Source of the DNA: Thermoproteota archaeon
GTDB lineage: Archaea; Korarchaeota; Korarchaeia; Korarchaeales; Korarchaeaceae
Direction: 5' to 3'
Assembly: GCA_027492205.1 (NCBI GenBank)
Contig: JAOZFN010000007.1
Coordinates: 155,278 to 219,277, forward strand
DNA length: 64,000 nucleotides
Positions within the stretch are counted from its first letter, which is position 1. The number at the start of each line of letters is the position of its first letter. The notes under the pieces are model-generated. The model had not been told where the DNA came from. It did not search any database and saw only the letters and a list, made by a program, of their open reading frames with translations. Shown piece after piece: positions 1,687 through 33,868 of the stretch. Both the position numbers and the translations under genes were made by a program.

Positions 1687-2379
1687 TCAGTACCACTCCA
1701 CGTAGTAGTCCCAAAACACCCTCCCGGGCGCCTCCCGCCTCCTCCTAGCGGCCTCCCTTAGTGGCGAGCCCAGGACCAGCCCCGTGATGAAGCCCCCTAC
1801 GTGAGCCCACCAGGCCACCCCGGAGATGCCGAGAGCCCCCATGATGAGCTGGTACACGAACCAGAAGCCGATGTAGTAATAGGCGGGTACCCGGACAACC
1901 TGCCAGAAGAAGCCGTAGGTGACCACGGTCTGGATTCTGGCGTGGGGGTAGAAGATCCAGTAAGCGCCGAGGACCCCGCTTATCGCCCCCGAAGCCCCCA
2001 CCGCGGGGATGTACGCCGCGGGTGGCGTGAGGCTGGCCAGCACGTGGAGTCCCGTTGCACCGACGCCCGAGGCTAGGTAGAACGCAAGGTACTTGGCCTT
2101 CCCGAATGCCGCCTCCACGTTGTCCCCGAAGATGTACAGGTAGACCATGTTGCCTATCAGGTGGGACCAGCCGCCGTGCAGGAACATGGACGTGAATATC
2201 CGGTACGCGTTTCCCAGCGGGTCGGCCAGGAACGCGGCGGGGATGAAGCCGAAGTCGTACACGGCACGCTCCAGGCCGTACGCCAGCTCCCAGAGGAAGA
2301 CCACCGTGTTGACGATGATGAGGGCGTAGGTGACGGCTGGCCTCACCCCGCTTGGGTTCTCATCTCTGATGGGGAACAT
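1687..2379 (-). CDS. Rhomboid intramembrane serine protease
   Basis: FLHGGWSHLIGNM, GASGA (catalytic Ser), AHVGG (catalytic His); SD GAGGTGA upstream. Confidence 0.93.
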   Translation of the reverse strand: MFPIRDENPSGVRPAVTYALIIVNTVVFLWELAYGLERAVYDFGFIPAAFLADPLGNAYRIFTSMFLHGGWSHLIGNMVYLYIFGDNVEAAFGKAKYLAFYLASGVGATGLHVLASLTPPAAYIPAVGASGAISGVLGAYWIFYPHARIQTVVTYGFFWQVVRVPAYYYIGFWFVYQLIMGALGISGVAWWAHVGGFITGLVLGSPLREAARRRREAPGRVFWDYYVEWY

Positions 2380-2393
2380 GGGACATCACCTCG

Positions 2394-2452
2394 GGCTCAG
2401 CCGACCCTCTTCCGGGGCACTGGACCCCTCTTGCCGAATAGTCATCATCGCC
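2394..2452 (-). ncRNA. Box C/D guide-type sRNA (candidate)
   Basis: Minus strand reads GGCG-ATGATGA (C box)-CTATTCGGC-AAGA (D')-GGGG..CCCC hairpin-GGAAGA (C')-GGGTCGG-CTGA (D box)-GCC. Terminal GGC/GCC stem; TATA-like TAAATAT about 22 nt upstream. Confidence 0.72.
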
Positions 2453-2478
2453 TAAGACCTCACTCCCGGTGCCAATAT

Positions 2479-2967
2479 TTAGGACTTGAGGACCCTCCCC
2501 CGGCGATCTATCTCGCCGGCCCTGATTCTGGTGGAGCTCAGCCTTCCCCCGTCCTCTGCGGGGACGAGGGGACACGCCACAATGTATAGGGGCCGAAGTC
2601 CTCTCTTTCTGCGGGCCTCGTTGACCAGCAGCGCCCCCGGAATGGTCTCCTCTGAGACCACCAAGGCGTCCGCCCTGCTGTCCTCTCCAGCCGGTCCGAC
2701 CGGGTCCGTTATGCGTACGACCTCTTGATCGACGCCGAGACTCCTCAGGAAGTCCTCAACAGCCCTCTTCCTGACATCAAAGGGTTCTATCATATCCCTG
2801 TACTTTTTCGACCTGAGGAGAGGTCCGTCGGCGAGGCCCACAAACACCTCTCGGCCTATGGAGGCCGCCAGCCTCAGCAGGGACTCGTGCCCGGCGTGAA
2901 GCCTGTCGAACGTACCCGCCACGATCACCCTTCCAAAAGGCTTTCCGCACGACCCGCGATCTCCCAA
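2479..2967 (-). CDS. coaD: Archaeal phosphopantetheine adenylyltransferase
   Basis: GTFDRLHAGH (HxGH), DPVGPA, LVVSEET, LSSTRIRAGEID. Confidence 0.9.
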   Translation of the reverse strand: MGDRGSCGKPFGRVIVAGTFDRLHAGHESLLRLAASIGREVFVGLADGPLLRSKKYRDMIEPFDVRKRAVEDFLRSLGVDQEVVRITDPVGPAGEDSRADALVVSEETIPGALLVNEARRKRGLRPLYIVACPLVPAEDGGRLSSTRIRAGEIDRRGRVLKS

Positions 2968-3611
2968 ACAGACACCACCTCTATATCCGGCGCCGCGGTC
3001 GAGTCCTTTGATGCGCTCTTGCCCCTCCTGACCCTGACCGTCTTCATGCCGAGCTCTCTGGCGGAGTCAACCCCCTCAGGCCTCGCAGTCACGTAGATGC
3101 AGTTAGCAGGGTTTACTCCCAGCTCTTCGAGGGCAGACCTGTGTCTCTCGGGGTCTGGCTGACCTACCCACGCTCTCTCGAAGAGGTGGTGTAGGCCCAA
3201 CCTGATAACCTTCTCCCACTCCTTCACGGGGCTCCCGGGCGAAGACAGACCGAGGCCGTAGCCGCGATCTCGAAGCGTGAGGAGAGTCTTGAAGACCCTG
3301 GGGAGCGGCCTCAAGAAGGCGCGCTTGGTGTCGTGATAGGCTATTACGCCGGCAGCTATGACCCTCGGGTCCACCCTCAGGCCGAGCGCCGATATGGCGT
3401 CGTCGAAGTGCCTCGTGTAATCCTCTCCCATCTCCTCGACCACCTCGTTCACCTTCCTCAGCAGGACCTCAAAGTCCGCGGGGAGTCCGGCCTCAATCAT
3501 AGCAACAACCGCGTTCTCTCGGGCCATCCTCTTCAGCAAGGTTGCGTCATACAAGACGTCGTCCACATCGAACAACCACCAGACTCGAGCTCTCCCCGAA
3601 CCGGAGCTCAT
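2925..3611 (-). CDS. HAD-superfamily hydrolase-like protein (MJ1437/TIGR02253-like), motifs III/IV degenerate
   Basis: FDVDDVLYD (motif I), ARENAVVAMIEAGL, IAAGVIAYH, KEWEKVIRLGL. The usual KP and GD..D motifs are replaced. Confidence 0.8.
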   Translation of the reverse strand: MSSGSGRARVWWLFDVDDVLYDATLLKRMARENAVVAMIEAGLPADFEVLLRKVNEVVEEMGEDYTRHFDDAISALGLRVDPRVIAAGVIAYHDTKRAFLRPLPRVFKTLLTLRDRGYGLGLSSPGSPVKEWEKVIRLGLHHLFERAWVGQPDPERHRSALEELGVNPANCIYVTARPEGVDSARELGMKTVRVRRGKSASKDSTAAPDIEVVSVWEIAGRAESLLEG

Positions 3612-14641: not shown

Positions 14642-15679
14642 TCAGGACTCCAGCAGCTCCGAAATTCGCCTAAGGAGGGTCTCTAGTTGCTGGGCCCTCA
14701 CGGCGGCCTCTACAAATCCTCCAGATCCGAAGTAGCTCCCCTCCAGGTCCAACATCGAGAGGTGAACTAAGGAGGGCAGGTCCTTGCGCTGGGCGCGGGA
14801 TCTCAGGGAAACGACGGCCATGACGTCGTCCGAGTACACTGCTCCAGCCACATCTCTGCCCGATGAGAGACTATCTGCGGCGGCGTGCCGTATCCTCGGA
14901 TCTTCTACCGGAATTACGAGAAGGCTCTGAGAACTAATCAGCGGCTTCGCTTGAACTAGATCGCCCAAAATCGCCTTCCCTCGATCTGCCAGACCAAGTA
15001 GGGCCTTAGACAACGGGTATCTGCCCCCTAGGAGGCAGGTGGGATCCTCAAAGCATTCCTCCAGGGCTGCAACCCCGAGCACCACCCCCGACTCGGGATC
15101 CCCGGCCACCGCCTCCAGCAGAGTTTCATACACCCGGGAAACGACACCCTCGCCCTCTCTCGACGTCTCAGCGTGGGGGCTGATCTCACATCTCGCGCCA
15201 GGTTCCAGGCAGCCTATTCTGCCCACCCACAGGTCGGGCGGCAAATCGGGGCAGAGGTACTGAGCCACGGTCATCGCCACCCGCGACGCGGGCAGCGGAG
15301 GAAGTCCCGACCCCAAGGGATTCAGCCTGAGAACTCTAGCCGGGATTCGGGGTCGATCAATCTCGTAGTGATCTATCACGAGAACCTGACCCCACAGCTG
15401 CTCGGCAACCTCGATTGGACCGGGCCCGGCGGGAATAAGATCGACGAGGACGAGTGCAGAATCCTCTGCGAAGGCCTCCTCGACGACTGAGAGCAGCTCT
15501 TCTGGAAGCGCCGGTCTCAAGGAGACTCCGACTCCCTGCTCCGAGATGGCCCTTCGAAGCAGAGCCGTTGCCGCCATCGAATCGGGCCAGGGGCCGTGGA
15601 CTAGGAAGGCGCTGTCGACCTCGTCCAGCACCTCTGCAAACATCCTGGCCCAGGAGGCGATGGGACTACTACTCGCCAA
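14642..15679 (-). CDS. DHH/DHHA1-fold protein (RecJ/GAN-like), catalytic motifs degenerate
   Basis: VHGPWPDSMAA replaces HxDxDG; LVLVDL; VIDHY replaces DHH; NP; SLRS...GSGGFVEAA (DHHA1-like). Confidence 0.6.
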   Translation of the reverse strand: MASSSPIASWARMFAEVLDEVDSAFLVHGPWPDSMAATALLRRAISEQGVGVSLRPALPEELLSVVEEAFAEDSALVLVDLIPAGPGPIEVAEQLWGQVLVIDHYEIDRPRIPARVLRLNPLGSGLPPLPASRVAMTVAQYLCPDLPPDLWVGRIGCLEPGARCEISPHAETSREGEGVVSRVYETLLEAVAGDPESGVVLGVAALEECFEDPTCLLGGRYPLSKALLGLADRGKAILGDLVQAKPLISSQSLLVIPVEDPRIRHAAADSLSSGRDVAGAVYSDDVMAVVSLRSRAQRKDLPSLVHLSMLDLEGSYFGSGGFVEAAVRAQQLETLLRRISELLES

Positions 15680-18143
15680 CCCTCTCCCACCTCAAGGCGG
15701 CCCAGAGCAGGAGGACCGAGGAGGTGAGCAGTGTGATCGTCAGAGGGACTATCGGATCTAGCTCTCTGCGGGGGGCCGCCTCCAGCTGGCTCAACTCATC
15801 CTCGACCTCCGAGAGGGTGTTGGCAGCGGATTGATAGTCTCCCGCCTCGATCTGGCTCTCTGCGCGGTTCAGCGCGTCCTCCAACTCGCCTAACCCGGCC
15901 GGTGAGGTGGCCCAGGGCAGGAGTGACCGCTCGCGAAGGGTTCTAACTCTCCTCCTGAGTTCCGTGAGCAGGCCTATGAGCTCCTCCCGGGTCACGCCGG
16001 CCCTCTCGACGATCCTTATCCTGAGGGGGTCTCCCGCGATTATCGTGTTGTTCACGGTGACCACCACGGGCAGCAGGTATGATCCGGGTTCGCCACCGGC
16101 CCTCAGGGTGATCCAGACCGTTCCAGGAACGGGAAACTCGAGGGTAAGGTTGTCTCGAAGGGTTCCGTTCGATGCGACCACCGTGAATCCATCGGGGAAC
16201 CTCGCGACGGCCACACCTGCCGGGCCGCCCACCCGAAGGGACACGTTCACCAAGCTACCTGTGAAAGCCCTCAATGGACCCATGGCGGCGTAAGAGTGAG
16301 GAATCGCTCCCACGGTGACGTTCACCGTCCTTCTCTCTATGACCCTCCCCCAGGGAAACGTGCCCTCTACAGCTATGTGAACAGGAAACCTGCCCGGCCT
16401 GTCCGACGTCATTTGAAGGCCAACGTTGAGGGTCTCGTTGGGTGATACCCTATCTACGTGGTGCGTCAACGAGCCGGAGACCGAGAAGTTCCTTGGAACT
16501 GTGACGTTTAGATCCACGTTTTTGGCCGGGGCACCGAATCTAATCGTGAGAGTCAGGTTAAACGGTATCAGGGGTAGAGCCTCCTCTGGGAGGTCCACCC
16601 GTAGGGTCAGAGGGGTTTTCAGGATGTGGACCTCAATCGGACCCACAGTCGGTTCAAGGATGAGACCAAACGCCTCATCGCACACTCTGGAACTCGCCAC
16701 AACTCTGTATAGGCCTGGGGACAGATTCAGCTCGACTTGCGTTATCCCCGCAGAATCCGGACCGAGCACCGAGAAGGACGGGGGGAATGTGAGGTTGGCC
16801 CCATCCACCGTGACAAGGGTGGAGTTAACTGTCATATTCCTGTCGCCCCTGTTAAGGAGTTCGAAGATCAACCTGACCGCGTCCCCTGCTCGGGCGTAGA
16901 CATCAGACCCGTTGAGGCAGATCAGCTGCACAGAAGGCAGGATGCCTATCCCTCTCTCAATCGAGAGGACCGTGGTATCGTTTAGAGATATGTGGGCGCC
17001 TATGGACCCGGAGGCGCCGTGGTCAAGGTGGGGCAGGGCTATGCTGATTGGCAGCTCTCCTGGCCCAGCGTCTGGGAGTGCCAGAGACGCCGACAGAGGT
17101 GGATCCGTGAGGTACATGGTAACGTTTAGGCCACCGTGTCCCGACAATTGGAGTGTTGCTTTGATTTCTGAGCCAGCGACGGCTGGAGCTTCTGGGAGTT
17201 GGAGGCTCGCGGCCCTCTCGCTTGGAAGGGTCAGCCTCAGTCTGTAGGCCACCCTTCCGTCGACCACGACCTTGTACGTTTTCACGCTAGCGTTTGCGGG
17301 GACGGAGATTAGGGCTGCCCACTTCCTTTGAAGTTCGGGCGACAGTATCCTGACTACCTCCTCTGATGGCAACCTCACTGCGATGAACTCGAAGCTCGGG
17401 TTGAAGGATATCTCACCGGTTACGGGGATCGCTCGGTTTAGCACGTAGGCGCCGGCGGTCCCTGCGATGCCCGTGCATATGAGAACGTAAGATCCTTCGT
17501 CGGAAGCGTACCAAACCTCGGCTCCAGCCCTAGAGATGGAAAGAACACTGTAGCGCCCGAGGGCTCCACTCCTCAGTCTGTACAGATAACCCCTGTTCAC
17601 GTCCAAGAACAACCAGGCACCCGTCTCATTATCGAGGGCGCCGTGGAGGATTACCTCATCGTTCCCTTCTGCCAAGACCAGCGTACCATTAGCTTCTGTG
17701 AATGTGAAGTTCTCCACCCTGGATTCGAATTTTGCCACCATGGGGTCCTCCGCTAAAATACCGGGCGGGATCACTAGCAGGTCTCCCACTCGGAGAGACC
17801 CGTTAAGCTCGTATTTCTCTCCATACATCACTTTCGGTTGTTCAAAGGCCATGAGAACCGCCCAAAGACCCCTAGAGATCTCGACCGGTCTCCATGCCTC
17901 TGTGATCTCTCCGCGCTCCCTTAACTCAATGTGATACATCTCCGAGACCTCAACCTTGGCCCCAGGGACGTCCGTCTCAGCCGATCTGGCCGGACCGGAG
18001 AGCGGGATCATGACGAGAGAGCCAGGAAATGCCACCAAGTCGGCTGACTCAGGCTGGCTTTGGGCAAGAGTCGGTGCGGGAGAGAGGAGGATCGCGAGAA
18101 CAGTCAGAAGTGCTGTGAACGCAAATCTCCTTGTGGACCCCAC
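15669..18143 (-). CDS. Large secreted, C-terminally membrane-anchored surface protein (Ig/CARDB-like repeats)
   Basis: Signal peptide, many N-x-S/T sequons, beta-rich repeats (LLNRGD), helical stalk and C-terminal TM helix. The start may be 18143 or 18164. Confidence 0.75.
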   Translation of the reverse strand: MGSTRRFAFTALLTVLAILLSPAPTLAQSQPESADLVAFPGSLVMIPLSGPARSAETDVPGAKVEVSEMYHIELRERGEITEAWRPVEISRGLWAVLMAFEQPKVMYGEKYELNGSLRVGDLLVIPPGILAEDPMVAKFESRVENFTFTEANGTLVLAEGNDEVILHGALDNETGAWLFLDVNRGYLYRLRSGALGRYSVLSISRAGAEVWYASDEGSYVLICTGIAGTAGAYVLNRAIPVTGEISFNPSFEFIAVRLPSEEVVRILSPELQRKWAALISVPANASVKTYKVVVDGRVAYRLRLTLPSERAASLQLPEAPAVAGSEIKATLQLSGHGGLNVTMYLTDPPLSASLALPDAGPGELPISIALPHLDHGASGSIGAHISLNDTTVLSIERGIGILPSVQLICLNGSDVYARAGDAVRLIFELLNRGDRNMTVNSTLVTVDGANLTFPPSFSVLGPDSAGITQVELNLSPGLYRVVASSRVCDEAFGLILEPTVGPIEVHILKTPLTLRVDLPEEALPLIPFNLTLTIRFGAPAKNVDLNVTVPRNFSVSGSLTHHVDRVSPNETLNVGLQMTSDRPGRFPVHIAVEGTFPWGRVIERRTVNVTVGAIPHSYAAMGPLRAFTGSLVNVSLRVGGPAGVAVARFPDGFTVVASNGTLRDNLTLEFPVPGTVWITLRAGGEPGSYLLPVVVTVNNTIIAGDPLRIRIVERAGVTREELIGLLTELRRRVRTLRERSLLPWATSPAGLGELEDALNRAESQIEAGDYQSAANTLSEVEDELSQLEAAPRRELDPIVPLTITLLTSSVLLLWAALRWERVGE

Positions 18144-18202
18144 GGCGCACCACCGGCGCCACACAGAAATTTAAAGCGAGGGAGTAGGCGCCTTAGGTTT
18201 CC

Positions 18203-24285: not shown

Positions 24286-25524
24286 ATGCCAGCAGGCATT
24301 TCTGAGACTGCCAGATATGCCATTGAGAACCCTAGCTCGATTAGAGAGATAATGAACCTCGTTGCGGACTATGAACGGAACCCAGAGAAGTACCCGCGCC
24401 CCTTGGTATATTTAGGCGGCGGGTGGCCCCAGGATCCGCCGCCGAAGCCGCTAGTAGACGCGATGAGGGAGCTCTGGGAGGATGAGAGGGAGATACGGCT
24501 CAGCGCGAGATACCCTCCTACCAAGGGAGACCCAGACTTCATAGACGCGGTTGTGGAGTACGAAGAAGCAATCTTCGGTAAGAAAATGTCCAGAGACGAG
24601 ATAATCTCGGGTCTAGGCAGCACGGACCTGGCGGGCGGTCTCTTCCTAGCAACTATGGACAGGGGTAGCGAGGTCATAATGGCGAGGCCGTGCTACCTCA
24701 ATTACCAGCGCCAGCTCCTCGTAGAGACGATGCTGGGCGCGAAGCTGAAGTACTGGAACGTGATCAAGGGGGGGAGATTCGAGCCGAACGTCGACGAGCT
24801 CCAGGAACTCATCAGCCCGGAGACCAGGATGCTGATCCTAGTGACCCCCGGAAATCCGGACGGGCAGGTCTTCCCGGACGAGGTGATCTCGGCGGTGTCG
24901 GACATCGCCGAGGAGAAGGGGTTCTGGGTCCTCTTGGACGTTGCCTACCGCATGTTCCACTACTCCGGCGTGCCGAGCTACTACTCTCGCCCCAGGAGGG
25001 AGAGGGAGATCTGGCTGGCGTCCATGTCGAAGGAGTTGAGGGCGCCCGGATGGAGGCTCGCTTATCTCTACGCCGATCCGGAGCTCATCAGGGCCGTCGA
25101 GACCGTTCAGCAGGCCAGGACGCTTGCCCCGACCAGGATCCCGCAGAGAGCGTTCGTGAGGATGATGTCCAAGGAGGGCGTGAGGGGCTGGCTGAGGAGG
25201 TACATGCTGGAGGAGACTCCGAAGGTCTACGGAGAGATCGCGAGGATGACGACGGACCTCATGTCTCAGATTGAGGGAATTCGGGTGCTCCCGCCTCAGG
25301 GTGGGTTCTACGTGTTCTTCAACGTGGAGTGCGTCGAGCCCAGCTCCAGGAGGTTCGTCCAAGGACTTCTGAACGAGTGGCAGGTCGCCCTCGCTCCGGG
25401 AGTCGATTTCGGCATGGAGGGCTGGGTCAGGCTCTCGTTCGCGCCCGCCGTGGAGGAGCCGGAGAAGATAAGGGAAGGGGTGGAGCGGATCTCGCAGTAC
25501 GTGGCGGGACTCAGGTCGTCGTAG
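24286..25524 (+). CDS. Class I/II PLP-dependent aminotransferase
   Basis: LGGGWP, TPGNPDG, DVAY, SMSKELRAPGWRL, VRLSF. Confidence 0.88.
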   Translation: MPAGISETARYAIENPSSIREIMNLVADYERNPEKYPRPLVYLGGGWPQDPPPKPLVDAMRELWEDEREIRLSARYPPTKGDPDFIDAVVEYEEAIFGKKMSRDEIISGLGSTDLAGGLFLATMDRGSEVIMARPCYLNYQRQLLVETMLGAKLKYWNVIKGGRFEPNVDELQELISPETRMLILVTPGNPDGQVFPDEVISAVSDIAEEKGFWVLLDVAYRMFHYSGVPSYYSRPRREREIWLASMSKELRAPGWRLAYLYADPELIRAVETVQQARTLAPTRIPQRAFVRMMSKEGVRGWLRRYMLEETPKVYGEIARMTTDLMSQIEGIRVLPPQGGFYVFFNVECVEPSSRRFVQGLLNEWQVALAPGVDFGMEGWVRLSFAPAVEEPEKIREGVERISQYVAGLRSS

Positions 25525-25584: not shown

Positions 25585-27813
25585 ATGTCGGAGGAGGGGG
25601 TGTTCTACCACATAGAGGGAACCCCCGGGGGTGTCTCGCTGTGGCTCGGGGGAGGTAAGAGCGTCGAGGTTGAGTTCCACCCGTACTTCTTCGTCCCGAA
25701 GGACTCCCTAGACAGGGAGACGGAGATTAAGCTGAGATCAAAGGCCCTCCGGGTGGAGGAAACCGTCGGCTACGATCCCTGGTTTGAGAGGAAGTTCCTG
25801 AAGGTGGTGGGAAGGGACGAGGAGGACCTCAGGAGGTTGGCGAGGCTGGTTCCCGATCCGTGGGAGTACTCCATCCCCACGTGGCAGAGGTTCCTCCTCG
25901 ATTCCAACCTGAGGCCTTTCTCCAGAGTCGTCTTCGAGAACGGCTCTCCGAGCCAGGTGAGCGAGGGGTACCTCGACGATCTCAAGGTCCTCTACTTCTC
26001 GGCGCTGATATACAGCGAGGATGGCTTCCCTGTTCCCGGGAGGAGTCCAGTCCTCGCGGTGGGTCACTCCACCGACGAGGGTCCCGTTGAGGTGATATCC
26101 TCGGAGGACGACTCTCAGGTGATAAGGGAGTTCCTCGACGTCGTTCGAAGGGAAGATCCAGATGTGATAGTCGGGTACGGCCAAGACGCCGACGAGCTTC
26201 AACACATGAAGGCCAGGGCGAAGCTGCACGGTATGAAGCTCACCCTGGGGAGGAGGGGAGGAGAAACGGAGGAGACGGGCAGGTTCTTCCGCGGGATAAT
26301 ACTCGTGGAGCAGAGGATTTCCGGCAGGGCCAACGTTGACATGTTCTCAATAGCTTGGCGGGACTTCCCCGGGCTCCCCACCAAGTCCTGGTACGAGCTG
26401 GCCGACGAGCTCGGCGTGCCCAGGCCCAGGCCGGTTCCCAAGTTCAGGATAGCCGAGAGGTGGAAGTCCGACAGGGACGGTCTCCTCGCGTATCTCAAGG
26501 CGAAGGTAGTCGCCATAAGGAACCTGGCGGAAAAGCTTCTCCCGCACCAGGCAGAGCTTGCGAAGCTCACCTACAGGCCCCTGCAGGAGGTCACGAGGAC
26601 TCCTGTGGGCGGCCTCGTCGAGTCCCTCGTCGCGATTCACGGGAAGAGGAGGGGGTGGGTGATTCCTCCCCAGAGGAAGGAGGAGAGGGGGTTCATTGGC
26701 GGATACGTGTGGCTAAAGTCCCCTGGCATCTACCAGAACATCTGCTACCTGGACTTCAAGAGCATGTATCCCAGCATCATGATACTTCACAACATCAGCC
26801 CGGAGACCGTGGAGCCCAAGGAGGGCTTCTGCTCCGTAGAGGAGGTCTCGGCGGAGGGCATAACCAAGAGGGTGTGCTCGGACAGGCGCGGGCTGTTTGC
26901 CGAGATCGCCTCGGACCTTCTTAGGAGAAGGGCAGAGATCAGGAGGGAGATGGAGGGCCTACCCCCGGACGCCGTCGAGCGGAAGAGGCTGGACGCGATC
27001 CAGAAGGCCATCAAGGTCGTCACGAACGCGATGTACGGCTACATGGGGTGGGAGGGCGCGTCCCTGCGGAACGTGCACGCGGCGGCTCTCACGGCCGCCT
27101 TGGGGAGGCACTACATCAAGAAGGTCGTGGAGATACTGCAGGAGAGGGGGCTTGAGGTCATCTACGTCGACACCGACGGCATTCAAGTCGTCGGAGGGTC
27201 CCCAGACGAATACTCCACTCTGCCCGACTGGCTGAACGAGCGGGTTCCCCTGACCATCGACCTGCAGTACGTGGCCGAGCGCGGCCTGTATCTCACGAAG
27301 AAGAAGTACGCCCACCTCGTCAACGGCAGGGTGGTGGCCAAGGGCTTCGAGTTCCTCAGGAGAGACTACCCGCCGATCATCAAGAGGGCCCAGGAGGAGG
27401 CCGTGAAGATGGCCCTTCAGGGAAGGCCCCTCCCCGAGATTGAGAAGAGGGTCGCAGAGTACAGGCGACTCCTGGAGGGGGGTAGAGTTCAGAAGGAGGA
27501 CCTGATCTTCATCGAGACTCTGGGAAAGAAGCTGGAGGACTTTGAGAGGAAGACGAAGGGCTACGTCGCCGGGCGGTGGCTCGAGGAGAACAAGGGCATT
27601 GAGGTCCACAGGGGGCAGGTCCTGAGGATAGTGATCGTGAGGGGTCACGGGAGCGTAAACGAGAGGGCTCGTCCGGCCGAGTTCTTTGACGTGGAAGACT
27701 GCGACCTGGACTACTACCTCAAGCTGCTCGATCAGGTCATGGAGAGAACTCTGAAGGCCCTCAAAGGAGTGGGCGTCGAGGAGGGCAAGAAGGGGCTAGA
27801 AGAGTTCTTCTGA
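25585..27813 (+). CDS. polB: Family B DNA polymerase (PolB3-like) with inactivated 3'-5' exonuclease
   Basis: Polymerase motifs DFKSMYPSI, KVVTNAMYGY, YVDTDG and KKKY intact; Exo I/II/III acidic residues lost; C-terminal KKGLEEFF. Confidence 0.9.
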   Translation: MSEEGVFYHIEGTPGGVSLWLGGGKSVEVEFHPYFFVPKDSLDRETEIKLRSKALRVEETVGYDPWFERKFLKVVGRDEEDLRRLARLVPDPWEYSIPTWQRFLLDSNLRPFSRVVFENGSPSQVSEGYLDDLKVLYFSALIYSEDGFPVPGRSPVLAVGHSTDEGPVEVISSEDDSQVIREFLDVVRREDPDVIVGYGQDADELQHMKARAKLHGMKLTLGRRGGETEETGRFFRGIILVEQRISGRANVDMFSIAWRDFPGLPTKSWYELADELGVPRPRPVPKFRIAERWKSDRDGLLAYLKAKVVAIRNLAEKLLPHQAELAKLTYRPLQEVTRTPVGGLVESLVAIHGKRRGWVIPPQRKEERGFIGGYVWLKSPGIYQNICYLDFKSMYPSIMILHNISPETVEPKEGFCSVEEVSAEGITKRVCSDRRGLFAEIASDLLRRRAEIRREMEGLPPDAVERKRLDAIQKAIKVVTNAMYGYMGWEGASLRNVHAAALTAALGRHYIKKVVEILQERGLEVIYVDTDGIQVVGGSPDEYSTLPDWLNERVPLTIDLQYVAERGLYLTKKKYAHLVNGRVVAKGFEFLRRDYPPIIKRAQEEAVKMALQGRPLPEIEKRVAEYRRLLEGGRVQKEDLIFIETLGKKLEDFERKTKGYVAGRWLEENKGIEVHRGQVLRIVIVRGHGSVNERARPAEFFDVEDCDLDYYLKLLDQVMERTLKALKGVGVEEGKKGLEEFF

Positions 27814-27834: not shown

Positions 27835-28173
27835 TCAAAGCTTCAGGAACTTCAGGGGGAGCTTGCCCGTCTGCCTGCTCCTCCTGGCCTGCAGCGGCCT
27901 CTTGATCTTCCTATCTTCCTCAGCCCTGGGCCTGACGAGACCCATGTGAACGGCGCAGCTGATGCAGTAGTACCTGGTCTCGAGCCTCTTGGAGATGTAA
28001 GCTCCCTGCTTCTCCAGCTCCCTCGCCAGGGGTCCGCCGATGGGCGAAACCCACCTGGTGATCCTCACCGCCTTGTCCGCTGGGACGAGCCTCCCGCAGG
28101 CGTGGCACTGCACAGGCTTCTCGTGACCTGAGTCAGATAGCTTCCTACCCCTGCTCTTCCTCTTCTTCGGCAT
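27835..28173 (-). CDS. rps26e: Ribosomal protein eS26
   Basis: MPKKRKSRGR, CHACGRLVPADKA, YCISCAVH, VRPR. Confidence 0.96.
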   Translation of the reverse strand: MPKKRKSRGRKLSDSGHEKPVQCHACGRLVPADKAVRITRWVSPIGGPLARELEKQGAYISKRLETRYYCISCAVHMGLVRPRAEEDRKIKRPLQARRSRQTGKLPLKFLKL

Positions 28174-28227: not shown

Positions 28228-29673
28228 TCAGTAGCTGCGTCCGATCCACGCCCTGTGCGGAGAAGGAGAGCCGCATACTATGCAGGGCCGCTCTTCTCCG
28301 CTCAGGGCTCCCTCCTCGTACCCCAGGATTCCGTAGCCTATCTCCTCCTCAACGGTGTGGGCGCACTCCTCCCGCCCGCACCAAGCGAAGCTAGCGAGCT
28401 TGCCCGCCGAGATGGCCTCTCGGATTTCGTCAAAGTTCTCCGCGTGCGTCAGCCTGCTCTCGAAGTACCTCTTAGCCTCTTCCCTGAGGGCGCTCTCGTA
28501 CTCCTCGAGCACCCGGCGGATGCCCTCAACCAGCTCCCGCTCTGGGATCTTGACGCGCTCGACTCTGTCCCTCCTCGCCACCGAGACGTAGCCTCCCTTG
28601 ACCTCCTGGGGCCCCACATCGATCTTCAGCGGGACTCCCCTGATGTCCCACTTGTAGTACTTGTAGCCCGGCCGCTCGTCCGACTCGTCTATCTCGACCC
28701 GGAATCCAGCCTCCTTAAGCCTCCGATAGAATTCCCTGGCCTTTGCGATGACGGGCTCCTTCTCTTCTGCCTTGGGAATCGGTATTACCACCATCTGCAC
28801 CGGCGCTATCTTGGGGGGGAGCTTCAGCCCCCTGTCGTCGCCGTGGATCGCGATTACTGCTGCCAGACTTCTCTCCGAGATCCCGAAGGAGGTAGTGTTC
28901 ACGTACCTCCGCTCCCCTTTCTCGTCCATGTAGGTCAGATCGTACGCCCTGGCGAAGAGATCCCCGAAGTTGATGACGCTACCCAGCTCGAGGGCCTTCC
29001 CGTCCGGCATTATGGTGATGAGGTCTATGTTGTACTTCGCGCCCGGGAAGGTGTCCCACGGGAGGGTTTTCACCACCAGGTACGGGACCATCAGCTCGTC
29101 GTAGAACTGGCGGTAGATCTTGACGCCCAGCTCGACCTGCTCGATCGCCTCCTCGAGGGTGGCGTGGAAGGTGTGACCCTCCTTGAAGAATGCTATCTCC
29201 CGGACCCTTATCAAGGGGCGGGTGGCCTTGGTCTCGAACCTGTACACGGGGACTATCTGGTATATCCTGAGCGGGAGGTCCGCGTAGCTCTGTATCCACC
29301 GTGATAGGACCTCATACATGATGGCCTCGCTCGTGGGTCTCAGAGCCAAGGGCTCTGGGGCGGGGCCGGTGCCCAACCGGGTGATCCAGTAAACCGAGTC
29401 CTGAAATCCCTTTATGAACTCGAACTCCCTCCCAAGGACGCTTTGTGGGACGACTCCCGGGAAGTAAACCCTCCTGTGGCCGGTCTCCCTCAGAAGTCGC
29501 TCCATTATGTCCATTACCGCCTCCATGATGGCGTAGCCGAAGGGCAGCCAGACGTACATTCCCTTAACTGGGTACCTCTCGTCCAAGATGCCCGACTTGA
29601 AGATGACCTCGTCGAACCACCTGGAGAAGTCCTCCTCCTTGGGGGTCAGCTCGAACGCCTTCCTCTCGGACAT
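28228..29673 (-). CDS. proS: Prolyl-tRNA synthetase (archaeal/eukaryotic type)
   Basis: RYPVKG, LRPTSE, RFETKATRPLIRVRE, FPGA, C-terminal Zn motif, GRSY terminus. Confidence 0.96.
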   Translation of the reverse strand: MSERKAFELTPKEEDFSRWFDEVIFKSGILDERYPVKGMYVWLPFGYAIMEAVMDIMERLLRETGHRRVYFPGVVPQSVLGREFEFIKGFQDSVYWITRLGTGPAPEPLALRPTSEAIMYEVLSRWIQSYADLPLRIYQIVPVYRFETKATRPLIRVREIAFFKEGHTFHATLEEAIEQVELGVKIYRQFYDELMVPYLVVKTLPWDTFPGAKYNIDLITIMPDGKALELGSVINFGDLFARAYDLTYMDEKGERRYVNTTSFGISERSLAAVIAIHGDDRGLKLPPKIAPVQMVVIPIPKAEEKEPVIAKAREFYRRLKEAGFRVEIDESDERPGYKYYKWDIRGVPLKIDVGPQEVKGGYVSVARRDRVERVKIPERELVEGIRRVLEEYESALREEAKRYFESRLTHAENFDEIREAISAGKLASFAWCGREECAHTVEEEIGYGILGYEEGALSGEERPCIVCGSPSPHRAWIGRSY

Positions 29674-32572: not shown

Positions 32573-33868
32573 CTACTCCAGCGTGTAGACCTTCAACCCA
32601 ACGGGTATCCTGCTCAGCTCGTAGGTCCTTCTACCGACTATCACCCTGATCCCAGAGAGGTGCGCCTTGTCCACAATTCGCTGAGTAACGTTCCCATCGT
32701 ACACGAGGTACTTCGCTCCGTCAACCGAGTCCAGCTGCTCGTGCAGGTCGCTCACCCTTACCTCCTTCACCTTTTTCATGTCCTCGGACAGGAGGATCGC
32801 CCTTCCGCTGGAGATTGCCTCTTTAACCCAGTCTCTGAACTCCTTGGGGATCCGCTTCTCCCACAGCTCCTCAACCGGAGGAGGTCCGGCGTGCTTCGTC
32901 ACGGCGGATCCCGCCTGAGGTTGTTGAATCTCCGCGGGAGCCTGAGGCGGGGGTGGCCTACTCACGGGCTTGGGGATCCCCATCCTCTCCCGCTCTTCGG
33001 ACGCTGGAACTGCAGACTCAAGCGCCTTCCTGATCTCCTTGGCCGTGAGGTCTTGCACGCCCTTGCCAGGGGGGGCCCTAGCGACGTAGTCCACATCCGT
33101 CTGCTCCAAGAGGGCCCTGAGAACCATCTCCCCTCCGCGATCCCCGTCAACGAAGGCTATGGCGTCCTTCTGGGCTATCAGCTTCACCACCGTGTCGGGG
33201 ACCCTCTCGACGGCCCCGCCGACCGATATGACGTTGGTCCAGCCGTACCTCAGCATGTTTACGACGTCCGCCCGGCCCTCCACGACTATCAGCTCCTCGG
33301 ACTCGTCCACCCCAGGGCCGGCTGGGAGCCTTTCTGGGCCGTAAAAGACCACCTCTTCGCGGGAGGCCTCCCTCAGGATCTTGTCAAGCAAGTCCTTGGA
33401 CGACTCCGCTGCCTGGCTCCTCCACTCCTTGAGTATCTCCACGGCCCTCTTAGCAATAAATCTCCTCTTCTCCTCACGTTCATCTGTAATTTTTCTCAAT
33501 TTGACCTTTGCAGTATAAGGTCCAACACGATCAACGCTCTCCATGGCGGCGGCGATAATGGCCGTCCGGGCCTTGTCTAGGCTGCAGCCGACCTGAATGA
33601 CGCCCCTTGTCTTGGCGCCCTCGTTCTTGAGGTGAACCTTTATCCTGCCTATCTTTCCTGTCCTCTGGAGCTCTCTCAGCTCTAGCTCGGGCCCTATAAG
33701 ACCCTCAAGCTGACCGAACAGCGCCCCTATAACGTCGCTGTCGTCCACATGACCGTTAACGACTATGTCGAGGTGGATCAGGTACTTGGGGTGGTGCTCT
33801 GCGTCCCTGTTCCTGTTCCCAGGGGGCCTCGACTCGAACCCAGGGGAATTCCTCAAGTCAAACATCAC
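32573..33868 (-). CDS. dnaG: Archaeal DnaG (exosome-associated primase-like)
   Basis: DVIGALFGQLEGL, LRELQRTGKIGRI, VEGRADV, DGDRGG (TOPRIM), DGNVTQRIVD. Confidence 0.95.
   Translation of the reverse strand: MMFDLRNSPGFESRPPGNRNRDAEHHPKYLIHLDIVVNGHVDDSDVIGALFGQLEGLIGPELELRELQRTGKIGRIKVHLKNEGAKTRGVIQVGCSLDKARTAIIAAAMESVDRVGPYTAKVKLRKITDEREEKRRFIAKRAVEILKEWRSQAAESSKDLLDKILREASREEVVFYGPERLPAGPGVDESEELIVVEGRADVVNMLRYGWTNVISVGGAVERVPDTVVKLIAQKDAIAFVDGDRGGEMVLRALLEQTDVDYVARAPPGKGVQDLTAKEIRKALESAVPASEERERMGIPKPVSRPPPPQAPAEIQQPQAGSAVTKHAGPPPVEELWEKRIPKEFRDWVKEAISSGRAILLSEDMKKVKEVRVSDLHEQLDSVDGAKYLVYDGNVTQRIVDKAHLSGIRVIVGRRTYELSRIPVGLKVYTLE

Follow-up and report, generated by a model that had tools for sequence, protein, structure and literature searches.

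The gene at positions 25585..27813 of the stretch analysed here encodes a family-B DNA polymerase of 742 amino acids that very probably retains polymerase competence, has lost its exonuclease and belongs to the PolB3 lineage. The stretch, called the window below, comprises 64,000 nucleotides of a Thermoproteota archaeon of the Korarchaeaceae (GenBank assembly GCA_027492205.1, contig JAOZFN010000007.1, positions 155,278 to 219,277). In textbooks, archaeal PolB3 stands for a thermostable polymerase that proofreads and senses uracil. Taking all the evidence together, we consider it likely that this protein, together with the 35 close relatives that form its clade, represents a Korarchaeum-type PolB3 acting as a PCNA-tethered, non-proofreading accessory polymerase.

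The protein is the product of a single open reading frame, which a preliminary description of this DNA had already delimited and which stands at the same coordinates, strand and length. It matches the Pfam families DNA_pol_B (E = 2.7e-42, residues 354-725) and DNA_pol_B_exo1 (1.4e-9, residues 163-260), and stays below the cut-off of every NCBIfam equivalog (159 bits for the best, where 780 are required). In a sequence search of solved structures, the best relative is the Pyrobaculum calidifontis PolB, 5mdn_A (HMMER, E = 2.2e-88, residues 27-734), followed by the PolB structures of Thermococcales at about 1e-75 to 1e-64; Sulfolobus PolB1 (1s5j_A) is retrieved at just 1.8e-35 over the polymerase half alone, and eukaryotic enzymes of the Pol alpha/zeta type match far less well (1e-13 to 1e-21). 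The AlphaFold2 model, obtained with 33 clade sequences as input, has a mean predicted local distance difference test score (pLDDT) of 88.6 and a predicted template-modelling score (pTM) of 0.84, and Foldseek superposes it over its full length on the 9N, Pyrobaculum, KOD and Tgo polymerases with template-modelling (TM) scores of 0.80-0.84. The N-terminal, exonuclease, palm, fingers and thumb domains follow each other in this order and end in a C-terminal tail resembling a PCNA-interacting peptide (PIP). The N-terminal part contains both FHPYFF and EYSIPTWQRFLLD; in a partial alignment, the Ile-Pro of the Thermococcales 'DIPF' stretch, which we take to be part of the N-terminal read-ahead pocket for uracil and hypoxanthine, corresponds to I97-P98, and its Phe to Thr99.

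The exonuclease site is altered in all three of its motifs. HMMER alignment to 5mdn_A and MAFFT alignments pair FDIEV of Exo I with FSALI, YNSNGFD of Exo II with YGQDADE and YVLDD of Exo III with YLKAK, so that only one of the four metal-binding carboxylates persists, as a Glu (E204), the others having given way to S139, L141 and K307. The preliminary description had listed the Exo I change from DIE to SAL and the Exo III change from YxxxD to YLKAK, both of which the alignments bear out, and had concluded that the metal ligands of the exonuclease are lost. This conclusion applies to three of the four positions; at Exo II the motif has indeed become GQDADE, yet the carboxylate is not simply lost, being Glu here and Asp in the short forms of the clade. 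The altered state is no accident of a single gene: none of the 35 clade members keeps the Asp or the Glu of Exo I, and the Asp of Exo III is replaced in all 35 (Lys in 28, Tyr in six short forms, Arg in P0006 and Thr in P0034).

The exonuclease domain is nevertheless held under strong constraint as a folded module with new conserved motifs of its own. Across 12 core sequences, mean pairwise identity is 0.62 in this domain and 0.61 in the palm and fingers, the N-terminal domain being the least conserved (0.40). The corresponding ratio of exonuclease to palm identity is 1.01 in the clade, compared to 0.89 in exonuclease-proficient crenarchaeal PolB3, 0.84 in PolB1 and 0.78 in a second group of exonuclease-dead PolB3 described below. 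The ratio of nonsynonymous to synonymous substitution rates (dN/dS, NG86 method), estimated from three within-genus pairs with unsaturated dS, ranges over 0.04-0.13 in the exonuclease domain, compared to 0.08-0.18 in the palm and fingers; for the whole gene it amounts to 0.08-0.24 within the genus. Because the domain is as conserved as the palm and its dN/dS is low, it is retained rather than decaying. Residues 183-273 include 20 columns that are invariant across 33 sequences, among them D201, R236, W258, R259 and D260, and the motifs QDxDE, an extended FFRG hairpin and IAWRDFPxLP are conserved innovations of the clade. The hairpin results from a 9-residue insertion relative to Thermoproteota PolB3, TGRFFRGxI, which is found in 35 of the 35 members with G232, F235, R236, G237 and I239 invariant. 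In the AlphaFold2 model, where the pLDDT of the exonuclease domain is about 86-97, the insertion lengthens a beta-hairpin (strands 229-235 and 238-244), which is placed with low confidence (pLDDT 57 for residues 231-240).

The catalytic site of the polymerase, as far as its residues tell, is complete. Motifs A, B, C and KKKY (the last at residues 572-575), earlier reported as intact, prove to have invariant key residues in a 25-sequence alignment (Table 1), including Y395 at the steric-gate position of motif A. Among all 35 clade members, the Asp of motif A is kept without exception, and DTD of motif C and KKKY are kept in 34, the remaining sequence (P0032) being a 478-residue fragment that stops before both. 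At the C-terminus, KKGLEEFF aligns with the ...SLLDFF and ...KLTDFF tails of canonical PolB3, and the pattern GLExx[FW][FL] occurs within the last 10 residues of 26 of the 35 members. A complex predicted for residues 700-742 with the single PCNA of the genome passed weakly, scoring 0.59 compared to 0.00 for the best control, with a partner pLDDT of at least 58 and contacts that agreed between runs in at least 67%. The mark applied to this score is reached by 58 of 80 solved complexes and by 2 of 110 mismatched pairs, and scores of 0.60 or less are weak; because PolB-PCNA complexes have already been solved (3a2f is among the Foldseek matches), the pass may reflect likeness to them. For the PCNA-binding tail proposed earlier, the LxxFF motif aligns with the PIP of PolB3, and the binding itself gains weak support.

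Phylogenetic analysis places the clade on the PolB3 side of the family. In a tree of 74 sequences (IQ-TREE, LG+C20 with posterior mean site frequencies, PMSF; supports from the Shimodaira-Hasegawa-like approximate likelihood ratio test, SH-aLRT), PolB1 (100*) and PolB2 (100) are recovered, the latter including a protein from contig C17 of this genome, and the clade joins all other PolB3 and the PolII-like sequences in one group (99*). All 21 clade sequences in this tree form a single branch (21/21, 100*) with a stem of 0.82. A subset of 36 sequences, comprising every group but four PolII-like rows and also omitting, as long rows, P0083 and the PolB2 of this genome, again placed the clade on the PolB3 side (support 95), with a stem of 1.13. 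In both trees the clade lies outside the Thermoproteota PolB3 group. The preliminary description had judged the protein PolB3-like rather than PolB2-like, and this judgement is upheld, as PolB2 is a clade of its own (100*) in both trees and the protein is not nested within it. Membership in PolB2 was further rejected on account of the YVDTDG of motif C, the conserved exonuclease domain and the lack of a neighbouring gene for inactivated RadA (iRadA), and membership in PolB1 because the latter is a separate clade (100*) to which the protein is 16-30% identical, depending on the domain. The same description had also raised the possibility of an undescribed archaeal subfamily. In favour of this idea, the clade is sharply separate (100*, stem 0.8-1.1, about five clusters); on the other hand, the tree assigns it to the PolB3 side, its gene stands in the ancestral PolB3 slot, a PolB3 of Korarchaeum has already been catalogued (PMC4104785, cited here, like the other papers below, from its accessible portions), and the exonuclease-dead state is also found in the second group.

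The clade is compact and well delimited. A word-indexed search of 5.8 billion proteins yielded the 35 close relatives (39-100% identity), with Candidatus Korarchaeum sp. and Thermoproteota archaeon among the source names; the matches that come next, at no more than 33% identity, belong to the ordinary PolB3 of Pyrobaculum, Vulcanisaeta and Bathyarchaeia. When 1.84 billion representatives at 50% identity were searched exhaustively with phmmer, about five full-length clusters of the clade were recovered (P0012, P0028, P0242, P0030 and P0034), beyond which the score drops from 472 to 290 bits. Of 40 Korarchaeia genomes, 29 have a match of the clade type at 44-100% identity (genera g1, 5/5; g2, 1/1; g3, 20/21; g6, 1/2; g7, 2/2). 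Genera g4 (4/4) and g5 (5/5), members of the family of the window genome, have a match of 31-34% identity alone; none of the 40 genomes has both kinds, and two, which are 63% and 66% complete, have neither. Of the 29 genomes that have a clade-type match, 25 carry an uninterrupted frame; the gene is truncated or split in G020, G029 and G030 and carries a stop in G032. In the latter the match is split and contains one TAA (G032:C48), and in a further metagenome-assembled genome (MAG), LHC4 (L012), the open frame stops before the tblastn match ends; these two interruptions may be frameshifts, assembly errors or single-genome pseudogenes. One g6 genome has a further PolB-like gene, a 1178-residue open frame (G009:C6:201798-202949) with a weak PolB match, 28% identical over residues 155-530 of the 742-residue protein.

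Beyond these genomes, records with one genome per species add clade genes in Kor2, Kor3, LHC4 and further Thermoproteota MAGs. Shorter forms of about 583 residues, which start at the equivalent of residue 133 and thus lack the N-terminal domain, are found in DHVE2, Aciduliprofundum and Thermoplasmata MAGs (L013-L017, L020), and a form of 688 residues in a Nanoarchaeia MAG (L019); these copies are 40-45% identical to the window protein. The DHVE2 copy is surrounded by housekeeping genes, with no separate open frame for the N-terminal domain upstream. The clade genes of DHVE2, Aciduliprofundum and Nanoarchaeia suggest that hydrothermal archaea of different phyla have exchanged the gene. No viral or mobile reservoir was found: a scan of IMG/VR with the clade alignment and a clade-specific pattern kept 80 loci, of which the best is 26% identical and none is a clade member.

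Loss of proofreading is not confined to this clade. The alignment contains 18 further matches, labelled Bathyarchaeia, Korarchaeota archaeon, Caldarchaeales and, in one case, Chloroflexi, that lack the Exo I and Exo III ligands and retain DTD and KK[RK]Y. These sequences, hereafter type-2, form a group in the 74-sequence tree (13/13, 99*) nested in Thermoproteota PolB3 (100*). The group is monophyletic (loci L039, L033, L024, L029, L038 and L066; a subset of P0038-P0064) and also occurs in MAGs labelled Nitrososphaerota. Among the best 150 representatives, 113 are intact in both the exonuclease and the polymerase, 21 are exonuclease-dead, 20 of them with an intact polymerase, the clade included, and 10 are unreadable because of gaps. 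Together with the second group, this count indicates that proofreading has been lost repeatedly in this branch of the family without damage to the polymerase site. Type-2 proteins share with the clade the intact polymerase motifs and lost exonuclease ligands, the company of PolB1 and PolD and, at the catalytic positions, Ser in place of the Exo I Asp (26/35 clade and 11/18 type-2 sequences) and Gly in place of the Exo II Asn (28/35 and 13/18). They differ in being 29-34% identical to it and in lacking the FFRG insertion, QDxDE and YLKxK. DP2 of PolD was found in 5 of 5 type-2 genomes and PolB1 in 4 of 4 tested, and also in Methanodesulfokora; the combination of PolB1, PolD and an exonuclease-dead PolB3 occurs in 6 of 6 genomes, all of which were picked for carrying an exonuclease-dead PolB3, so that this count is a lead, not a test. 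Kor3 has PolB1 and the clade gene, and Methanodesulfokora has PolB1 and a type-2 gene.

The two groups meet in one genomic slot. In the window, an aminotransferase gene is followed by the polymerase gene, those for ribosomal protein S26e and prolyl-tRNA synthetase (ProRS) on the reverse strand, an unnamed gene (g29721), a Pelota/eRF1-like gene and a Toprim-domain gene resembling archaeal dnaG. This order is preserved in Kor2 (L006) and, minus the aminotransferase match, in L007-L010. In Methanodesulfokora (L039 and L033), the same slot is occupied, in the same orientation, by a type-2 PolB3; the flanking proteins are 56-65% identical to those of the window and the polymerases in the slot 31%, and PolB1 of the Korarchaeum-type and Methanodesulfokora lineages is 55% identical. 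The type-2 gene of three Bathyarchaeia loci is flanked by Pelota-like and DnaG-like homologues, and it and the adjoining DnaG-like gene are convergent; a convergent polB3-dnaG context has been described in crenarchaea (Makarova et al. 2014, PMC4104785). Under the simplest scenario, to which we assign about an even chance, the clade descends in situ from the PolB3 of the slot: it would be a strongly accelerated descendant of an exonuclease-dead PolB3 in the ancestral position, later copied to other Korarchaeia, DHVE2 and Nanoarchaeia. Elsewhere in the window, an 831-residue open frame without a Pfam match at 1e-5 (15669-18164, reverse strand) is 37% identical to its Kor2 homologue, compared to 72-88% for neighbouring genes, and is fast-evolving.

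Table 1. Features of the polymerase gene and its surroundings (window coordinates)
Feature	Position	Strand	Evidence and detail
Whole gene: Korarchaeum-type PolB3, exonuclease-dead, polymerase motifs intact, 742 aa	25585..27813	+	Open reading frame, Pfam, PDB match, AlphaFold2, Foldseek
Exo I position LYFSALI; D->S139, E->L141	25990..26010	+	Alignments; 0/35 clade members with D/E, 26/35 with Ser at the Asp position
Exo II position VGYGQDADELQH; N->G199, F->D203, D->E204	26170..26205	+	Alignments; D201 clade-invariant
Clade-specific insertion ETGRFFRGIILVEQ, longer exonuclease-domain beta-hairpin	26272..26313	+	Alignment, AlphaFold2 model
Exo III position AYLKAKVV; Y303 kept, catalytic D->K307	26488..26511	+	Alignments; Lys in core clade, Tyr in short DHVE2-type forms
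Polymerase motif A YLDFKSMYPS; D390 metal ligand, Y395	26746..26775	+	D390, F391, S393, M394, Y395 and P396 invariant, 25/25
Polymerase motif B KVVTNAMYGY	27013..27042	+	N481, A482, Y484 and G485 invariant (25 sequences)
Polymerase motif C IYVDTDGI; D529, D531	27160..27183	+	Y527, D529, T530 and D531 invariant (25 sequences)
KxY motif TKKKYA	27295..27312	+	K572, K573 and Y575 invariant (25 sequences)
C-terminal PIP-like tail KKGLEEFF; L738, F741, F742	27787..27810	+	Aligned with canonical PolB3 tails
PolB1, 850 aa	44932..47484	+	Exonuclease ALDIEV, FNGDGFD, YCYRDA; motif C YGDTDS; B1 clade 100*
Class I/II aminotransferase, upstream neighbour, slot marker	24286..25524	+	Pfam; also upstream in L006, L039, L033
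Ribosomal protein S26e, slot marker	27835-28173	-	Pfam; synteny in L006-L010, L039/L033
Prolyl-tRNA synthetase (ProRS), slot marker	28228-29673	-	Pfam; synteny in L006-L010, L039/L033
Toprim-domain, archaeal DnaG-like; convergent with the polymerase gene, 4.8 kb downstream	32573..33868	-	Pfam Toprim_4, 3e-7

The genome (1.94 Mb, 96% complete) encodes three family-B polymerases, namely PolB1, the 742-residue protein and PolB2, both subunits of PolD (DP1 and DP2) and one PCNA, the gene of which is located just downstream of that for DP2. The intact PolB1 noted earlier at a distance of 17 kb lies 17.1 kb downstream, and its motifs and its grouping with PolB1 (100*) agree with that assignment; the two genes are on the same contig, 17-20 kb apart, in at least 16 genomes. 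No PolY was found in this genome, and 39 of the 40 Korarchaeia genomes lack a match, the remaining one having a fragment of 77 residues. On contig C16 (L096), the C-terminal end of DP2 (74-1105), PCNA (1447-2238) and a 321-residue open frame (2249-3214) lie on one strand in a compact replication cluster. The PolB2 of the genome (contig C17, L177 3194-5251, forward strand, 685 residues) has LVDSLF at motif C. A 291-residue open frame divergently adjacent to it (L177 1934-2809, reverse strand) carries a RadA-like GVEGLDRLLGGGI motif with no obvious Walker A; together the two genes probably represent the PolB2-iRadA damage module of the literature (PMC4104785, PMC11791011).

Given that PolD and PolB1 hold the proofreading activities, we infer that the third polymerase is an accessory one. 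The enzyme would polymerize DNA without proofreading, its LxxFF tail tethering it to the single PCNA, and PolD and PolB1, both of which proofread, would perform the accurate bulk synthesis. Short-patch or accessory synthesis, in the form of lagging-strand work, gap filling or repair, would then fall to the third polymerase, and damage-tolerant synthesis would be possible as well. Thermococcales PolB has been reported to facilitate lagging-strand synthesis and Okazaki fragment maturation (PMC13136892), and replication or repair roles are considered possible for PolB3 enzymes in general (PMC7544198); on these grounds a short-patch, gap-filling or maturation role is the default. Our assignment of the protein to an accessory or lagging-strand and repair function is accordingly tentative, and we hold it at somewhat below even odds. 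A role in damage tolerance is made plausible by the lack of Y-family polymerases in Korarchaeia, which fits this role and does not demonstrate it.

A stronger version of the latter idea, a dedicated translesion polymerase, would make the protein an exonuclease-less lesion inserter that replaces PolY, with the PolB2-iRadA module as extender. Translesion polymerases usually lack proofreading, PolY is missing as described above, and the PolB2 of the genome adjoins a gene resembling inactivated RadA, Sulfolobus Dpo2, a PolB2, having been reported as a translesion extender (PMC8764526). We regard this version as unlikely, however, because the gene has no damage-response context, its neighbours encoding a tRNA synthetase and a ribosomal protein, because the active site is of the standard high-fidelity B-family type, and because DHVE2 and the Nanoarchaeia MAG hold the clade gene alongside an exonuclease-proficient PolB. 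The strong conservation of the exonuclease domain, with its palm-like identity, low dN/dS and 20 invariant columns, and the Glu or Asp kept at the Exo II carboxylate would also suit a repurposed domain, either a weak or altered nuclease or a surface that binds DNA or a partner through QDxDE, the FFRG hairpin and WRDFP. Mutating two Exo I residues is, on the other hand, the standard route to exonuclease-minus archaeal PolB; here neither of these carboxylates nor the Exo III Asp survives in any of the 35 members, the conservation is equally explained by the structural role that the exonuclease domain plays in all B-family polymerases, and we know of no partner for the domain. Repurposing thus appears quite improbable. 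That the protein is a catalytically inert, regulatory or decaying homologue has nothing in its favour beyond the loss of exonuclease residues, and can be given hardly any credence in view of the invariance of all polymerase catalytic residues, the frame intact in 25 of 29 Korarchaeia genomes and the whole-gene dN/dS.

Several observations weigh against the picture of a non-proofreading accessory PolB3 derived from the slot. Both the competence of the polymerase and the deadness of the exonuclease are read from residues alone, and E204 and the invariant D201 preserve some acidic character in the former exonuclease cleft. The PCNA complex scored weakly, and the present evidence would accommodate lagging-strand or gap-filling synthesis and translesion synthesis alike; any role is proposed rather than observed. 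In genomes of DHVE2, Aciduliprofundum and Nanoarchaeia (L013, L020 and L019), the clade gene coexists with an exonuclease-proficient PolB (SFDIEN or AFDIET), which makes it an extra paralogue there. As for origin, the position of the clade within the PolB3 side is weak (sister to the rest with a support of 88 in the 74-sequence tree, and 29 with 36 sequences), and descent in the slot conflicts with the trees, in which the clade stands apart from type-2. The approximately unbiased (AU) test on 36 sequences rejects the union of clade and type-2 (p = 0.0125, log-likelihood lower by 34.8), the grouping having been named after the first tree was viewed and long branches being involved. No shared neighbours were found around the clade gene in the Kor3, DHVE2 and Nanoarchaeia loci compared. 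Finally, since the clade gene is found in g6 and g7, outside family f1, and is missing from g4 and g5 inside it, simple vertical descent needs transfers; as the clade gene of g6 and g7 is found in other contexts, transfers are required under descent and displacement alike.

An alternative that concerns evolution only is that the clade is an old, separate PolB lineage, perhaps from an extinct lineage or a mobile element, that displaced the resident exonuclease-dead PolB3 in situ in the Korarchaeum-like genera. It agrees with the AU test and with the branching of the clade outside Thermoproteota PolB3 in both trees; moreover, DHVE2, Aciduliprofundum and the Nanoarchaeia MAG hold the clade gene as a supplementary copy, and it has other contexts in Kor3, indicating that it moved between lineages. 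Against displacement, the slot is exactly that of Methanodesulfokora, orientation included, and the clade matches type-2 in Ser and Gly substitutions at catalytic positions; no clade member was found on IMG/VR contigs, the DHVE2 copy resides among housekeeping genes, and the long stem (0.8-1.1) makes misplacement of the clade by long-branch effects plausible. We consider displacement a serious possibility that falls somewhat short of an even chance, and the choice between an accelerated descendant and displacement in the slot is close to even. A more elaborate scenario, which we find doubtful, is that archaea equipped with PolB1 and PolD turned PolB3 into a non-proofreading enzyme, that a burst of change in the Korarchaeum lineage gave the dead exonuclease domain a new function, and that the product was useful enough for DHVE2 and Nanoarchaeia to acquire it as an extra polymerase. 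The new function might be, for example, strand displacement, primer hand-off or partner binding through the FFRG hairpin, QDxDE and WRDFP, and the DHVE2 copy would have been stripped of the uracil-sensing N-terminal domain. If true, this conversion of PolB3 would parallel, within the archaea, the way in which Pol alpha and Pol zeta arose.

Among known systems, the closest counterparts of the Korarchaeum-type PolB3 are the archaeal PolB3 enzymes of Pyrobaculum (5mdn) and Thermococcales (Pfu, KOD, 9N and Tgo), which are its best sequence matches and share with it the full-length five-domain fold, the polymerase motifs and the side of the PolB tree. Its PIP-like tail stands where they have the C-terminal PIP, and its neighbourhood, with a convergent dnaG-like gene nearby, may correspond to that of PolB3. 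In contrast to these enzymes, it has replaced exonuclease residues and the FFRG insertion, is only 29-33% identical to them, has a long stem not nested in Thermoproteota PolB3, and possesses an N-terminal domain that is the least conserved part of the clade and missing from the DHVE2-type forms. The likeness to PolB2, such as Sulfolobus Dpo2, lies in the lack of exonuclease catalytic residues in a B-family polymerase. PolB2 enzymes usually lack the first Asp of motif C and have a decayed exonuclease domain (PMC11791011), unlike the present protein with its DTD and fully conserved exonuclease fold; furthermore, where PolB2 has an operon with iRadA and PPB2 (arCOG07300), the gene of the present protein is flanked by the aminotransferase and S26e genes, and the iRadA-like frame adjoins the PolB2 on contig C17. 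With Pol alpha and Pol zeta it shares an intact polymerase site and a retained dead exonuclease domain, in the company of proofreading replicases (PMC7544198, PMC12680538). It differs in the absence of a Cys-rich C-terminal domain, as KKGLEEFF ends the protein 14 residues past the last thumb helix and no cysteine cluster is present. We know of no link of the protein to a B-subunit or primase. The resemblance is an analogy, not membership.

Korarchaeum has been reported to encode PolB3 and PolB1 (Makarova et al. 2014, PMC4104785), and, considering also the source name Candidatus Korarchaeum sp. in the clade, the gene family as such is already catalogued. The non-subscription literature searched, including passages of PMC4104785, PMC7544198, PMC12680538, PMC11791011 and PMC7785828, contains no mention of exonuclease loss in korarchaeal PolB3, which the supplements of Makarova 2014 or Kazlauskas 2020 may classify, nor of the separate remodelled clade, the slot shared with other exonuclease-dead PolB3 or the truncated DHVE2 gene. 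In the accessible text of Kazlauskas 2020, groups B4 and B6 are Delta-like, B7 is PolII-like, and B8, B9 and B10 belong to an EpsilonN-like clade; none of B4-B10 is linked there to korarchaea or DHVE2, and the string 'Korarch' is absent from the main text.

The significance of these findings is that a whole archaeal class keeps a PolB3 that has no proofreading site and is strongly constrained in its remainder. This would provide a natural, testable case of a replicative B-family polymerase that specializes once other proofreading polymerases exist; how eukaryotic Pol alpha and Pol zeta originated poses the same question. The slot common to the clade and a homologue of 31% identity offers a clean case for either extreme acceleration or displacement in situ. 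On the practical side, the clade may be a source of natural exonuclease-minus thermostable PolB enzymes, N-terminally truncated ones included. For the biology of Korarchaeia, the presence of such a polymerase raises the question of how damage-tolerant synthesis proceeds in archaea without a Y-family polymerase.

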